Shown: positions 54,001-63,000 of the stretch, piece by piece
Layout: every line of letters begins with the position of its first letter
How positions within the stretch are numbered: position 1 is the stretch's first letter
DNA from: Microcoleaceae cyanobacterium
GTDB lineage: Bacteria; Cyanobacteriota; Cyanobacteriia; Cyanobacteriales; Microcoleaceae
Direction of reading: 5' to 3'
Length of the DNA stretch: 64,000 bases
Assembly: GCA_051652765.1 (NCBI GenBank)
Contig: JBOFUV010000148.1
Location: 49,341 to 113,340 of the forward strand
Position numbers: made by a program

Positions 54001-57000
54001 TCACAATCCAATGAATTCATTGCCGATATCTATGGATTACGAGATGAATTTGATTTAGTAACTCAGATCAAATTAGCTCGATATTTATCAAACTTGCCAG
54101 AGTGGAAATTAGAGTCTAACGAGCTAGTGAATCAACTGCAAAAAAGTATCTACCAAACAGGCCAAACTGCAACGATTAGTACAGGGACAAATCCCAACTC
54201 CAGCTACAGTTGGATGCGATCGCCAACAGTTTCTCAGGCTGAAGCATTACAGCTTTTTATTGCTCAAAATACTCAACCCGAAAAAACAGATGCGCTCCTG
54301 AAAAGTTTGTTGGATTTGAGGCGGAATGGAGCCTGGGGTAGTACCTATGATAATGCCGCAGCACTAAGCGCTCTAGTGGCCTATGCTCAGAATGAACCGA
54401 CTCCTAGCAAGTTTGAGATTTCCGTACAACTGTCTGGCAAACCCATTGGCTCAACAGAATTTAATGGATACCAAAATTCAGCCTGGAAGTTAACCATTCC
54501 CATGAAAGAATTGCCCCGAGGCAAGACTAACTTAACCCTTCAAACCTCAGGTCAGGGCCGACTGAATTACTTAGTAGCTTATCGCTATCGGTTGGATGGC
54601 AATCAACCCGGACGATTGAATGGATTGCGGGTGGATCGAACCATTCGGGCTGCCAATGAAACTGAAGCCTTATACCGCATGGGGTTAACCTCAAACTCTA
54701 AGCCTTTCCAAGTTAAGCCCGGTCAAGTCTTTGATATTGGCCTGGAAATCATTACTGACCACCCGGTGAATCAAGTGCTGATTACTGACCCCTTGCCTGC
54801 AGGGTTTGAAGCAATTGATGCTAGTTTTCAGACGAGCAACCCCGCAGTTCAGGCCCAGTCCGATAGTTGGGAGATTAACTATCAAACCATTCACCGCGAT
54901 CGCGTTGTCGCCTATGGGGATCGCCTCGAACCGGGAGTCTATCAATTACATTACTTAGTCCGTTCAGTCACGCCGGGAGAGTTCGATTGGCCAGGGGCAG
55001 AGGCCCGCTTGCAATACACCCCAGAAGAATTTGGTCGGAGTGCCTTGACGACCCTTGTGGTTTCTGAACAGCCTTAAACTTGACTGGGTCGTATTCACGT
55101 TTGAGCTACCCTTGGTCACTCCTGCCATATGGAACCCATTTGGTCTCTTAGCGAGAGAAGCAAGACTGAAAAAATGAAGTATGCAAGCAGCTTGACAGAC
55201 AAAGAGTGGGACATAATCGAACCCCGTCGGTGAAGCCCCATAAAGTTTTCGGGTGTTGGGCGAGGACACGATTCCCTACGGGAGAGGCTGCACAACGATT
55301 TCGTCAAGGATGGGTTTAAGCTGTTGCATAGCCTGAGTATTGGCGTAAATAAGGCGGTTGAAATCCAATGACAATATCTTCTTTGGGGATACCTCGCTCA
55401 ACAAGATCTTGACCAATATCTAATTCAGTATTGTTAATCTGAATCCAAATTTTTTCGTTTTTAATATCTAAATGAATTGAACAGCCGTAGACTCTCTCTT
55501 TTTTATCCCAGCCGATCGCAACGACCTGGTAATGATCGTGTTCGGTGTCAAAAACGGTTTGAATCTCAATATCACCATAGGATGGTTTGTAGGCAGCATA
55601 TTGCTCCAGCAGTTGCTTGATGATGGTTCGATAAGTTTGGAGTTTTTCTAGACTTGCCATAAAACGATTACCTCATTTTCAATGTCATAAACGAAAAGTT
55701 CAAGTTCATACTGTTGAATAACCATGCGCGGAAATTCTTTTTGAAAGAATGTTTTATAGGCGACATCTGGAACAGCAAGAAATAATTTCCGTTCTGGATC
55801 GGCCACTTTTAATGCCACACGATAGTTAATGAATTGCCCGATCGCGAGATGGAAATCAGCAAGGCTAGAGGTGTTGATAAAGCTTTTGATTTCGACGGCA
55901 ATCTTTTTGCCATCGCGTTCGGCGGCGAGTAGTTTTTCTGCACCGAGGTCAATGAAGAAGTCTACGCCACCTACTTTAAGGAAAAGCGGATCATCGGTAA
56001 TTTGCCAGCCGTCTTTAATCAGGGCAGTTTTGACCACATCATGGAACAGATCTTTTGCCATTACTCGTCACCTCCATTGTCTTTGCCCATGCGGTACTTA
56101 ATATCGTAGTTGATGAGGTCGTCGAGTTCTTGGTCGGTGAAGCCCCCCGAAATCTTTTGATGTTGGGCGAGGACGCGATCATGAGATTTCTGCAAGCCGC
56201 CCCATCTCGACGCTGACAGCATCAAAGCGGTTATCACTAGGTCGATAGGATAAAAGTTCCATCCCAATGGGTTCGCCCGTCGTTTCATCTTTGATTAGAA
56301 TGACTCCATCTCCCAGTTCTGTTGCAATTTGATTTTTTCGCGGAGGTTGCCAAAAAACTGTTAGCAACTCCATTTCGGGTTCGTAGTAGATTTTTACTTG
56401 TGCCATAGGGGTTCTCCTTCTTTGATTGCATCGGTTTGGTAAGCCGTGATCAGAAATCCATCTCCATTTAACCGTCGGGCAACGCCAACAACCCATCGCT
56501 TTTCTTTCAAAACCAAATAAAACAGCAATAGGTTTGGATCGCGGCTACTGCGACGAATTTCATCGGGATTGGTCAGTGCTTGTCTGACTTCGGCTTCGAG
56601 ATCGGCAATGTCTGGATGTTTGACGATCAGTTTTTGCCAATATTCTTCTGAGGTGCGAACGGTGAAGTTGAGGGGAGTGAGGATTTCAAATTTACTCATG
56701 AGTCATCACCTCTGGGTGAAACCAATGGTTCAATATAATTTAATAGTTGAGGTAAGTTTTCGTTGATGACTGTCCAGACTTCATCGAGATCGACTTCATC
56801 ATAATCATGGGTGATGACATCACGCATTCCAGCAATTTCTTTCCAGGGAATGGTAGGATGCTGTTCCCTAAAATCTTTTGAGAGTCGTTTGGTCGCTTCG
56901 CCGATGATGGTGATGCGGCGCAAAATCGCATCTTGTTTTTCGATGTTGGCTGCTAAGTTAGCGAAATTAACTGCTTCAACATATCGAAGAATGAGTTTGA

Positions 57001-60000: not shown

Positions 60001-63000
60001 CTATCATGATAGATGTCTTTTGCTGGCATAGAACTCAATCTTCCCCTCCATTGTCTCTGCCCATGTGGTACTTAATATCGTAGTTGATGAGGTCGTCGAG
60101 TTCTTCAGCGGTGAAGCCCTCCAAAAAATTTTAGTGTTGGGCAAGGACGCGATCGCTCTCACCAATGATGGGTTTTGATTAAGCGATCGCAAACCCAGTG
60201 TAAGGTCGAATAGATAGTTCTTTGAAGCCCAAAACGATCTTATCTTTGGGAATTCCAGCAGTCATGAGATCGCTAGCAATACCATAGTCTGTTCCATCTC
60301 GTTGAATCCAAATTTTTTCATTGATAATCTCAATGTCAATCAAACAGCCGTGAATCCGAGAATGATCTTTTTTCCAGCCATTAGATATAACCAGATAGCG
60401 ATCATGAACAGGATCAAATACCGTTTTATTGCTTAGCTCTAAAATGTCAGGATTGGCATATTGGCGAGTTGTAAATTCTTCCAATAAGCTTCGGATTATT
60501 TTGCGATAATTTTCTAGTTCATCCATTGGATAATTTCCTCCTGTTCAACATTAAAAACCAGTAATTTTAGACGGTGATTTTCTAGCAAAACTTTACCAAT
60601 CGAAGTAGGGTCTTCAAATAGATCGCGGAAGGTTGCATCCCGAATTGCCAGAAAAAGTTCTCTATCAGTATCAGTACGAACAAGCAGATCTTGATAAAGA
60701 ATAAATTGCCCTAGAGCATTTTTTAGATCTTCAACATCTGACAGTCCAACAAAGCTTTTGATTTCGACAGCAATACGCTGATCGTCTTTCTGGGCAGCGA
60801 CCAGTTTTTCAGCACCCAGATCAATAAACAAATCTTTGGAACCCCATCGAAGAAAGTAAGGATCATGAGTGATTGTCCAACCGTCCTTAATCAGAGCTTG
60901 TTTGCAGTTGTCGTGATATATATCTTTGGCTGGCATAGGATTTAATCCTCCCCTCCATTATCTCTGCCCATGCGGTATTTGATGTCGTAATTGATGATGA
61001 AGTCGAGTTCTTCGGTGGTGAAGCCGTAATGTTGGGCAAGGACGCGATTCTCCATCGGAGAGGCTGCGCCAACGCTTTCGTCAGTGATGGTTTTAACATT
61101 TGGATTATCATTATTTTAATCATCCAGGTTTTTCCAAAATCGATTGAATTTCTGGCAAAATATCAGGCAAGTTAATATGAATCACATTCCAGAGAATATC
61201 AAAATCCAACTCGTCATAATCATGAATAACGACATCTCTTAAACCAGCCATTTGTCGCCAGGGAATCGTTGGATGTTGCTCACGAAACTCATTAGATAGA
61301 CGCTTAGTTGCTTCTCCAATCACGATCAGTCGATATAAAATAGCAGCTTGTTTTTCGTCATCTTCTTGTAGATTATTTCGATTAATGTCTTGGGCATACA
61401 GTAATGTTTGTTGGATAGCTGTAGAAATATCCATTAATGCCTGTTTATCTCGCAGCATAGATGACCTCCGCTGAATCTAGAATCACTTGACGACGGAGGG
61501 CATTGTGGCTATTGATAATACTTTGATGAGTCAATAAATCGACTGGTCGCTGAAAAAGGGTAGACAGTTCTTCTCGCATTTGGATAAACTCTAAGCCCCA
61601 AGAGTGATGAGGAAAGAAGCCAACTAAGATGTCCACATCACTGTTAGCGGAAAAGTCATCTCGCAGAACTGACCCAAAGAGAGCGAGTTCTGCAACTTGC
61701 CATCGCTGGCAAAATTCAGCAAGCTGTTCTGGGGTAATTCCTAGTCGTGATTGAAGTCTAGAATTTAGTTGAAGTGTAGCCATTACTCATCACCTCCTGT
61801 ATCTCTGCCCATGCGGTATTTGATGTCGTAGTTGATGATGAAGTCGAGTTCTTCGTCGGTGAAGCCGTATTGGTGAATCATGGGATTAAACCCCGTTCGA
61901 CATCGCGGTAGGCGTTGAGGGCGGCTTGTTTGGTGGGGGCGGGGACGATGGGAAAGGTGCTGAGGATATGGGCAAATTCGATTTCGGTGAGCTGATAGAG
62001 ATGGGCGATGATGCCATCGAGTTCGGCGCGGAGCTTGGCGCGATCGACTTCGTTGGTAATATGACCCTCATTAGCCCTCACCCTAAATCCCTCTCCCAAA
62101 GAGGGAGAGGGACTTTGAAATTCCGGTTCCCCTTCGCCCCCCTTGGGAGAAGGGGTTAGGGGATGAGGGCAAACCTCCGCCCACAGGTCGTCAAATTCGG
62201 GGGTGGTGCAGATCAGCTTGGCAGCGCGATCGACGATTGCGGCGAACCATTTGTCGCCCTCCTGAAGCCGAGGAACAGGAAGTTGATAAAGGAAGAAAAA
62301 CGTCAGGTTAGTTGTAACTCGTTGGCGAATCAAATAGTCAATAATAAATGAGTTGAGAATGCAACAGAAGAATAATTCTGACTGGTAACTGATCTGTTCT
62401 TTAGAATCTCGAATTATTACTGTAGGTATTTTATGATTGCAAAATACTTGTCTTGGGAGCATTGTTATAATTGCAGTTCTCTGATCAGTATTTCTAGCAA
62501 TATCTCTAAATCCAAGCCGATAGGTTTGGTAACTTAGTATTTGCCCAAGATCTTCTTCACCGCGTTTAATTAATGCTGTTCTAGCTTCGCTTTCATCTAA
62601 CCAATACTTAGGTTGTCCCCACTGATGGGTGAACTGGTGAATCATCTTGCCTTCGTAGAGCGGCAGTCGCCCCGGTGCTGGCTCCGGCTTGAACAGATGA
62701 CTGTCACTCGTCATATTCAACTCTTGGCACAGTTTCAGATTCCACTTGCCGTCAATCTTTTCGCCCAGCAAGGGGAATTGCAGCATCTTTTGGGCAATGG
62801 TGATGTCGATCGGTTGCTTAAACTCCATCACCGACAGCGAATCTGGCGATAGCTTGCGGATGAGCGGCACATCTAAGTAAATATCATCAACTGCTGGAAA
62901 TTGAGCAAGTTCAGCAATATCATGACGCATAAAGCGCACTGGGAAGGCTTGAGTATTGCCCCCTTTTTCAAAAGTCAAAATTACAAACTTAAAGCGACTA

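Follow-up and report, generated by a model that had tools for sequence, protein, structure and literature searches.

How do unrelated two-gene modules come to be stacked one behind another downstream of a single restriction-modification (RM) gene? The question is raised by a 64,000-nucleotide stretch of contig C148 (the window) from a Microcoleaceae cyanobacterium (G000, the genome under study). Here, the 3′ two-thirds of a type IIG-like RM gene (61878..64000; minus strand, as are all features below unless stated), 706 aa up to the contig end, is followed by copies of a short repeat between positions 55226 and 61875. A preliminary description had reported seven copies of this repeat and eight modules, each with its own copy of an RM gene end. 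BLAST confirmed the repeat itself, while the counts changed: the array contains eight copies, here called stubs, seven inter-stub segments and nine cassettes, all on the minus strand. The cassettes comprise four MNT/HEPN, three XisH/XisI and two DUF4258-like/DUF2283 types, and seven of the gene pairs are intact. Each stub is a copy of the 3′ end of a type IIG RM gene (its final ~35 codons). Compared with one copy, the stubs gave E-values of 3e-10 to 1e-39. Stub pairs are 70–89% identical over aligned columns and reach 79–95% in local BLAST; a search of the 5.0-Mb genome found no further copies outside the array. The inserts are shorter than 20 kb, lie between direct repeats longer than 30 bp and carry no mobility gene. 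An assembly artefact was rejected, as each copy has unique flanks and the same junctions are seen again in other genomes and in contigs from metagenomes.

Stub 1 (61783..61875) begins 2 nt after the resident stop codon. It covers the RM tail from position 40 onward, retains the RM-like LDFIINY and matches an intact RM tail over 71 nt at 99% identity. Cassette A (61120..61783) encodes MNT (61445–61783) and HEPN (61120–61458) proteins, assigned by Pfam as are those below unless stated; its HEPN has an intact RxxxxH and matches HepN toxins in the PDB (E 3e-4), and the cassette is 85–86% identical in nucleotides to cassettes at loci L091 and L095. Stub 2 (60940..61094) is a whole tail with a 24-nt insertion that we take to be a small dispersed repeat; a literature search on such repeats found no paper. 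Cassette B (60179..60936; XisH 60514–60936, XisI 60179–60526) is matched, flanks included, by a 98%-identical contig in run X1. Stub 3 (60035..60176) is a whole tail with a 12-nt insertion, the LDDL variant and an in-frame stop. Cassette C (59290..60029; XisH 59613–60029, XisI 59290–59625) is 81–92% identical to cassettes in L090, L092, L097, L108 and L056, and its 3′ junction is identical in L090, L092 and L108. The 12-nt insertion and LDDL recur in stubs 4 (59166..59283), 5 (58335..58454) and 6 (57371..57505), and stub 7 (56061..56181) has LDDL with the 12-nt insertion variant. Between stubs 4 and 5 lies cassette D (58467..59130; MNT 58777–59130, HEPN 58467–58805, RxxxxH intact).

Behind stub 5, a single deletion at 57821/57822 joins cassettes E (57822..58322) and F (57521..57821); it took the catalytic end of the HEPN gene, the intervening stub and most of the F toxin. 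E retains an intact MNT gene (58032–58322) and a HEPN gene cut ahead of its catalytic motif, with 91% identity to the intact HEPN of L090 as far as 57822; F retains the final ~90 nt of a putative toxin and an intact DUF2283 gene (57521–57733), with 93% identity to L092 and L095 starting at 57821. Cassette G (56696..57371; MNT 57033–57371, HEPN 56696–57043, RxxxxH intact) is 80–84% identical to L056, L108 and L129, and merely a ~15-nt remnant of a stub 3′ end (56697..56712; repeat family D7) lies between it and cassette H (56179..56699). H contains a 101-aa DUF4258-like gene (56394–56699) and a 74-aa DUF2283-like gene (56179–56403). Neither has a Pfam match, a PDB search of a cassette H gene gave nothing below E 0.2, and the names come from Atlas neighbours (0.99 and 0.91–0.92) as automatic names that serve as leads only; the cassette is 78–90% identical to cassettes at other loci. 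Cassette I (55316..56061; XisH 55648–56061, XisI 55316–55660; PDB 2okf/2inb) is 78–81% identical to L089 and L096. The array ends in the 5′ half of stub 8 (55226..55318), truncated by an insertion-sequence-like repeat end (55125..55225, plus strand) with six other genome copies at 76–92%. From a peptide motif, we take this element to be of the IS5 family.

The cargo resembles toxin-antitoxin (TA) operons. The HEPN–MNT signature (MNT GS..R/DxD, then HEPN RxxxxH) is complete in A, D and G, and cassette E has lost the HEPN motif. Toxin function is a prediction from sequence, and XisH/XisI and DUF4258/DUF2283 are TA candidates that fill the same slots as HicAB, PIN, PemK, RelB and HEPN/MNT pairs. 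In a survey with Pfam run on 54 of 149 candidate ORFs, cargo between RM-tail copies included known TA families in cyanobacteria, with AbiJ-, KwaB- and UvrD-like genes in other phyla. The published role of XisH/XisI is that of helpers of XisF (PMC4853749), and the papers found on the pair and toxins do not, as listed, announce XisH and XisI as a toxin-antitoxin system.

Where do the stubs come from? They do not copy the resident gene's end; PADLOC and tail comparison place them in the tail of a sister subfamily, PDLC03628; the resident gene (Pfam Eco57I/N6_Mtase; best PADLOC model PDLC03613) has a different tail. The tail reported from a long RM-type ORF in G025 was not recovered (0/5 labels; genome labels may differ between analyses), and equivalents were found in other genomes. 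The N-terminus of the resident gene and a PLD/SNF2 helicase partner most likely lie on C121:1–4841. The two pieces belong to one gene, ~1.45 kb apart, in 19 of 20 homologous loci; the remaining locus is truncated by a contig end. About 0.7 kb inside the RM gene is absent from the G000 assembly. The C121 helicase and the first ~95 RM codons are 85–87% identical to loci with stub-type tails, after which identity falls to ~55%. The lead gene in G000 has since been replaced by a sister-subfamily gene.

We counted 45 junctions, which are not independent. Stubs begin where the variable recognition domain gives way to the tail, and 0/45 junctions extend more than 5 nt into that domain; among eight RM genes, conservation rises from ~0.3–0.4 in this domain to 0.8 in the tail. 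Starts span tail positions −5 to 84, with 19/45 at positions 20–29, a GATCG/HIP1-like spot in GC-richer genomes. This spot was rejected as an obligatory crossover site because AT-rich and non-cyanobacterial arrays share similar boundaries without it. From the cargo stop codon to the stub, the median distance is 6 nt (≤10 nt in 28/45, ≤30 nt in 38/45). Cargo begins after the tail's stop codon, so it is not an in-frame C-terminus of the repeat. Several genomes have stubs with the 12-nt insertion and the LDDL variant, against 0/132 RM-linked tails (second L141 copy excluded). Stubs lack protein constraint, with residue changes numbering 17/340 in stubs versus 2/210 in RM tails. Their identity to their own tail shows no steady drop with distance, and no age gradient was seen along the arrays, apart from stubs 1 and 2, which of those in the window come closest to the RM sequence.

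The layout of RM gene, cassette and stub recurs at 10/19 cyanobacterial and 12/93 other loci, counting RM loci followed by 1.5 kb or more of sequence and dropping L109, L233 and L240 as duplicates or overlaps. These counts are made up of stubs at 6/13 and 4/6 cyanobacterial RM loci, 7/54 other or unnamed GTDB loci and 5/39 metagenome loci. DNA searches found the stub in 0/60 relatives, so protein queries were needed; in three DNA runs 5–9% of words were present, as pieces from relatives only. Congeners G001 and G002 lack the locus, and single-tail RM loci occurred only in more distant genomes. The same cassettes (77–93% nucleotide identity) appear in different orders: A-B-C-D-E/F-G-H-I in G000, C-E-H-F in L090, H-C-F in L092, A-J-K in L091, C-L-G in L108, L-H in G264 and H-K-G-C in G128, and metagenome contigs join parts of the array in yet other orders. 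One cassette keeps one junction across several genomes while both neighbours differ. Recognition domains that are 80–84% identical are followed by different first cassettes, and an identical first cassette stands behind unrelated domains (46–55%); by these comparisons, which cassette comes first does not depend on the recognition domain.

Linkage within the stub places the exchange zone inside the repeat. Across 32 copies from 12 GC-richer cyanobacterial-type loci (13, 8 and 147 pairs, few and related), positions 1–42 track the upstream cargo (identity 0.88/0.80 versus 0.34/0.50), positions 114 onward track the downstream cargo (0.75/0.74 versus 0.58/0.31) and positions 43–113 track neither. 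Two internal markers assort with neither neighbour, indicating exchange in more than one interval.

Fixed-junction cassettes in new orders, an exchange zone inside the repeat and a first cassette uncoupled from the recognition domain support the earlier proposal that RM termini act as handles for stacking and swapping modules. On balance, we favor a pool of cassettes that is exchanged without an integrase, through homologous recombination inside the RM tail. Docking would take place at the conserved tail (~110 bp) shared by a widespread family of type IIG RM genes, and a cassette would be this tail plus a short, promoterless-looking operon. Entry would occur by a crossover, presumably RecA-type, within a tail copy; the donor may be a circle excised between two copies or a linear molecule flanked by a tail arm on either side. 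The RM gene would keep its reading frame, and the surplus tail copy would remain as a stub. Repeated entry would build arrays, and cassettes would pass between cyanobacterial families as a common pool. Swaps of the recognition domain or of the entire RM body would use this tail, too, as their downstream arm, and one such swap could have placed the sister-subfamily gene ahead of the array. Putative addiction, which would resist the reverse excision, is probably why TA cargo is over-represented. Stubs 70–89% alike over ~100 bp are poor RecA substrates, so this array may by now be mostly static. Homologous recombination does not explain how the junction came to lie so tightly behind the stop codon.

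A more ambitious reading, which we offer tentatively, is that RM termini have given rise to a self-maintaining handle lineage, an active integrase-free counterpart of integrons that would serve a phylum-wide TA/defence pool in which RM specificity change can load or reorder cassettes. The derived marks of stubs, absent from working RM genes, hint at such a lineage. If it exists, reading between stubs would predict new TA/defence systems, among them a nuclease toxin-antitoxin pair formed by XisH/XisI.

The stubs could instead be passive scars. A new RM allele would arrive together with its downstream TA pair, joined by homologous crossover on the upstream side and illegitimately on the downstream side; deletions would then trim the old gene to a stub, and cassettes would never move alone. 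Long remnants fit this picture, namely an RM1-TA-RM2 arrangement in G313 with a second RM gene of 928 aa and tandem RM genes in L101 and L105, as does a C130 stub with a second, internally deleted mod piece (94% to the mod gene of G002). The swap of the resident RM body ending in stub 1 and the stubs' lack of protein constraint also agree with it. However, single cassettes keep one junction with both neighbours changed, the first cassette is uncoupled from the recognition domain and stub-only markers are common to several genomes. Random trimming should also often leave recognition-domain remains, which were seen at 0/45 junctions, although seven gaps >30 nt could hide some. We consider this account rather unlikely for the arrays, and it may explain the first birth of a cassette.

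A trans-acting site-specific recombinase, integron-like, tvr-like or of the XisF type helped by XisH/XisI, might recognise the stub. The ORF-tight cassettes look integron-like, nearly half of stub starts fall at the GATCG/HIP1-like spot, XisH/XisI help XisF, and all five genomes with arrays carry a large serine recombinase somewhere. Yet no tyrosine or large serine recombinase (PF00589, PF07508) lies near the arrays in 5/5 genomes: the nearest PF00589 match in G000 is ~73 kb away on C148, and single-contig G177 has two arrays but only 53-aa integrase fragments. The search covered these two families, so a resolvase-type or an unlinked enzyme could still be involved. An attC-like or other hairpin was rejected (10/10 folds no better than shuffles, z −0.34 to +1.31). 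Exchange in several intervals, arrays without the GATCG site and XisHI in AT-rich and non-cyanobacterial genomes, and unrelated repeats (mod start, hsdM end, hsdS ends) giving the same design in one genome likewise make this alternative improbable. XisH/XisI were rejected as required excision machinery, as arrays without them exist. Slightly less probable still is that stubs are kept for expression, supplying the following cassette with its promoter and ribosome-binding site, so that their loss would silence an antitoxin, with recombination incidental. The tail's last codons do carry a GGAGG motif; in most copies the following start codon lies just behind the tail's stop or overlaps it. Cassettes are left with hardly any upstream DNA besides the stub, and mod-start stubs are in frame with MNT genes at C12/C130. 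Against this, a consensus scan found no promoter or terminator in any stub (10 sigma-70-like sites in the region versus 14.5 expected), and variable stub starts and shuffled orders would go unexplained.

RM-tail TA cassette arrays were not found in our literature searches, and precedents for parts exist, so we regard the process as a new use of known recombination rather than new chemistry. Integron arrays likewise consist of co-oriented, ORF-tight cassettes with one repeat each, many TA pairs and variable order. The array shares co-orientation, ORF-tightness and, compared with other genomes, variable order, but has no IntI or attC hairpin, and its repeat is protein-coding RM sequence by origin. 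Domain movement and TRD swapping have been described in RM genes (PMC3077401, PMC3467074). In such exchanges, conserved sequence flanking the recognition domain is the recombination arm. Domains move within or between genes, and the process is not known to stack outside genes. The closest likeness is rhs C-terminal displacement, where relevant passages of Jackson et al. 2009 (PMC2935791) describe an intact gene trailed by long series of directly repeated copies of a conserved part of a gene, every copy with its own cargo from a pool shared between genomes, and propose homologous recombination with circles and no integrase. Here too, direct repeats of a lead gene's conserved piece each carry different cargo, the pool is shared and no integrase is linked. 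In those passages, however, the repeated piece is a core that precedes a variable tip, and the tip becomes part of the protein; here it is a conserved tail downstream of a variable domain, and the cargo is separate TA-like operons after the stop codon. The repeats here also come from an RM gene, and gene starts as well as ends are used.

Single RM-gene insertions with long target duplication, compared with empty sites, are treated in passages of Furuta et al. 2010 (PMC2853133), and Nobusato et al. 2000 is cited on the same process. These passages contain no multi-cassette arrays, TA cargo ('toxin', 0 occurrences) or shared reusable pool. The working criterion there is an insert with R and M genes; the inserts here carry TA-like pairs instead. 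The pneumococcal tvr (SpnIV) locus, according to sections of PMC6265443, combines an RM locus, direct repeats, TA homologues inside and circles formed by excision. It shuffles hsdS recognition domains with a linked tyrosine recombinase, TvrR, has one regulating TA-like pair and shows RecA-independent residual excision; here TA pairs are the moving units, and neither a linked recombinase nor recognition-domain segments between stubs were found. Payne et al. (bioRxiv 10.1101/2024.01.29.577857) report that co-oriented accessory cassettes accumulate in RM-type operons (RM, BREX, DISARM, Hma), in passages that give no repeat-based mechanism ('recombination' 0 occurrences, 'repeat' 1). Our reading offers a testable mechanism for such accumulation of TA/defence genes in or behind RM operons without an integrase. 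One 110-bp sequence would link RM specificity swaps to accessory-gene capture, and genes between RM-tail copies give a search rule that returns known TA families and AbiJ-, KwaB- and UvrD-like genes.

Several related designs reported elsewhere in this genome were recovered. At C12/C130, which overlap by 139 nt, there are six copies of a mod start whose parent is a type III mod gene adjoining res, and this mod gene is present in G002; the stub was not found in G029 as had been claimed (genome labels may differ between analyses), with equivalents in other genomes. In-frame fusion to MNT genes is limited to these mod-start stubs. C10 has three start and two end copies around half an hsdS gene, and relatives of its stub were found in 0/200 genomes. 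An extra repeat was observed at C109:11.6–13.3 kb, with no parent gene in 200 genomes and one uninformative match among protein representatives. At C109:25.3–28.3 kb the order is hsdM-MNT-HEPN-stub. The type ISP gene on C148 is split by a two-gene insert, and its counterpart on C22 gives two matches of 27–30% identity, ~1.5 kb apart.

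Behind the 3′ part of a resident Eco57I-type RM gene (61878-63998, minus strand) lies an array of eight stubs, spaced 0.8-1.3 kb apart on the minus strand of the window, that are mutually 70-89% identical and whose peptide ends in YDIKYRMG. The window forms the terminal part of contig C148. A search of the whole genome (G000; 5.0 Mb, 46% GC) found no further stub copies. The octamer GCGATCGC, which we take to be HIP1, occurs there once per 1.6 kb, as in cyanobacteria. Between the stubs are four MNT/HEPN pairs, three XisH/XisI pairs, one DUF2283 gene and one pair without a Pfam match, whose neighbours in the Atlas carry the names DUF4258 and DUF2283. 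The preliminary description counted eight modules, each with its own RM-end copy. The eight repeat copies stand, while comparison with intact copies in other genomes resolved nine cassettes, A to I: a single deletion at 57821/57822 fused E and F; it took away most of toxin F, the stub that had followed cassette E and the catalytic part of its HEPN, while sparing both presumed antitoxins. Only a 15-nt remnant lies between G and H. The last copy, stub 8, is truncated by an IS-like end. In all three copies of cassette F that were read (L092:7618-8011 and L095:6979-7240, from other genomes, and window 57730-57821), DUF2283 is intact but the presumed toxin is independently broken, the lesions being an insertion, a stop codon and a deletion. 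An alpha-2-macroglobulin gene of ordinary bacterial type adjoins the array (49216-55077), with different neighbours in both congeners.

Of 300 other genomes from the order, 16 were matched by the stub query, nine of them more than once, and most matches lay where a frame of 1000-1300 aa ends. One protein with such a tail, from G264, matches the PADLOC type IIG model PDLC03628 over the full length. When eight genes of this type are compared, identity stands at about 0.3-0.4 across residues 780-1050, presumably the recognition domain, and reaches 0.8 within the final 35-40 residues; it is this conserved end that the stub represents. The stubs thus copy the last codons of an RM gene, as had been proposed, but not those of the resident gene, which ends differently and has PDLC03613 as its best PADLOC model. 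The start of the resident gene probably lies at the end of contig C121, together with a PLD/SNF2 helicase. The helicase and first 95 RM codons share 85-87% DNA identity with loci carrying a stub-type gene, after which identity falls to ~55%. We infer that the RM body was probably replaced and that the downstream join falls within stub 1, which begins 2 nt after the new stop. Small TA-like or DUF-type genes, differing among genomes, lie between helicase and RM gene (C121:757-1397; L040:2432-3347). Palindromic CCCTCTCCC-type repeats occur in frame within the RM gene (62074-62170 and 63825-63862), and the genome holds 78 9-mers of this type.

Across 45 junctions, many of them shared, stubs start between tail positions −5 and 84 and never further upstream, most often at positions 20-29 (19/45) or 0-9 (8/45). 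The median gap from cargo stop codon to stub is 6 nt, exceeding 30 nt in seven of the 45. Several non-cyanobacterial stubs are 90-97% identical to the tail of their own locus. Counterparts of the window cassettes are 77-93% identical and differently ordered: C-E-H-F in L090, H-C-F in L092, A-J-K in L091, C-L-G in L108, L-H in G264 and H-K-G-C in G128, where J, K and L are cassettes not among A to I. Contigs from public runs, representing relatives and not the G000 strain, show parts in still other joins, such as a stub-2-like copy directly after E. The first cassette and the recognition domain are uncoupled.

The stubs themselves are mosaic. In 32 aligned copies, positions 1-42 track the cassette upstream and those from 114 on the cassette downstream; the stretch in between (43-113) tracks neither, with slight tracking of the genome at 67-90 (0.93 versus 0.85), although this linkage comparison draws on few, mutually related pairs. 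A 12-nt insertion (~position 45) and an LDDL change (~75) assort freely with both neighbouring cassettes, and therefore exchange or conversion occurred in more than one interval. Neither was found in 132 RM-linked tails, where two regex matches lay at another position. The insertion is present in window stubs 3-8 (for example, 59243-59257) and in L040, L090, L091, L095 and L108. It has at least seven sequence variants at one place, is weakly palindromic and varies much more than the sequence on either side; our guess is an operator or a small-repeat footprint. In stubs 2 and 8 (61049-61072 and 55262-55285), a palindromic repeat of 23-24 nt, resembling cyanobacterial small dispersed repeats, is inserted at the GATCG spot; it recurs there in stubs of L090, L091 and L095, with one more copy on contig C31. 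The different cassette orders, a cassette C 3′ junction identical in four genomes and the mosaic stubs support the proposal that RM termini stack and swap TA modules.

The RM-tail/cassette feature is real and widespread. RM gene, cargo and stub follow one another in G264, G177, G058, G099, G209, G193 and G079, and named records with this layout include Microcystis aeruginosa NIES-4325, a cultured strain whose locus is L090. When only RM-anchored loci that extend at least 1.5 kb downstream are counted, the RM gene has a stub behind it in 6/13 and 4/6 cyanobacterial loci, 7/54 other or unnamed GTDB loci (the GTDB set being the best 80 of 585 matches and biased toward the query) and 5/39 metagenome loci, or 22/112 overall. 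By hand tally, 29 of 32 cyanobacterial inter-repeat segments carry HicAB, PIN, PemK, RelB, MNT/HEPN, XisHI or DUF2283 types; outside cyanobacteria, cargo includes KwaB-, AbiJ-, AAA- and UvrD-like genes and Y1 transposases. Tandem long RM genes with a common tail (600-1150 aa each) occur in L101, L105, L046 and L195, and are possibly stacked alternative specificities.

The same design was confirmed elsewhere in G000. Contigs C12/C130 carry six type III mod-start copies, of which some continue in frame into MNT genes. Elsewhere, G259, G057 and G128 have intact mod-XisHI-res loci, and five further genomes have lone units made of a mod-start stub and a pair. On C10, half an hsdS is flanked by three start and two end copies, and C109 reads hsdM-MNT-HEPN-hsdM end. 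Since unrelated repeats yield one design, these loci argue for a general process rather than a dedicated site. C109 holds a further array (11300-13300), in which Fic/Doc, UPF0175/DUF3368 and DUF433 genes are set apart by three copies of an unassigned repeat of ~90-120 bp. A fourth copy is at C112:35263-35364; this copy and the array are each head to head with LRR genes, and no parent gene was found in 200 genomes. At window 1-1707 (C148:47640-51047), an RM-type gene is split into two frames by a vapBC-like insert of two genes. A repeat scan gave no flanking repeat, so this is a different design.

How such arrays arise is probably explained by homologous recombination inside the repeat, which would exchange units of tail plus cargo; this reading of the sequences is countered by the divergence of present-day repeats, the lack of a clear age gradient along the arrays, the few, related pairs and the want of an empty site in close relatives, as neither congener (G001, G002) has the locus. 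The stubs may instead be passive scars of RM allele replacement, a less likely account that can hold alongside homologous exchange. Long RM remnants in G313, L101, L105 and one C130 stub suggest that cassettes were created by replacement and trimming; their later movement is suggested by mosaic stubs and shared junctions. A recombinase acting in trans is improbable: no tyrosine or large serine recombinase was found near arrays in five genomes, and G177, a single contig, has integrase fragments of 53 aa only, yet carries two arrays, one of four tail copies and one of RM-start copies. Retention of stubs for expression is about as improbable; the stubs contain no consensus promoter. They decay as non-coding DNA does. 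In the G177 start array (L074:5535-7430), the helicase and the RM gene, here of a sister subfamily, have two RM-start stubs between them, a mirror image of the tail arrays.

On the favoured reading, the array would operate much as rhs C-terminal displacement does (PMC2935791), and also as insertion with long target duplication does (PMC2853133), as far as the available portions describe them; in the latter, RM genes are among the targets and repeats often span start or stop sites. It is not an integron, as stubs fold no better than shuffled sequences and tyrosine recombinases are absent near arrays in five genomes, nor a tvr-type locus as portrayed in the accessible part of PMC6265443. Payne et al. 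describe RM operons with embedded cargo but, in the sections available, propose no mechanism based on repeats, and such arrays do not appear in the accessible text of an RM review (PMC12707154). Our literature search, in which subscription journals were poorly covered, found no account of TA arrays bounded by RM gene termini. The length of its array and the ease of following its cassettes from one genome to another make this locus a useful example.
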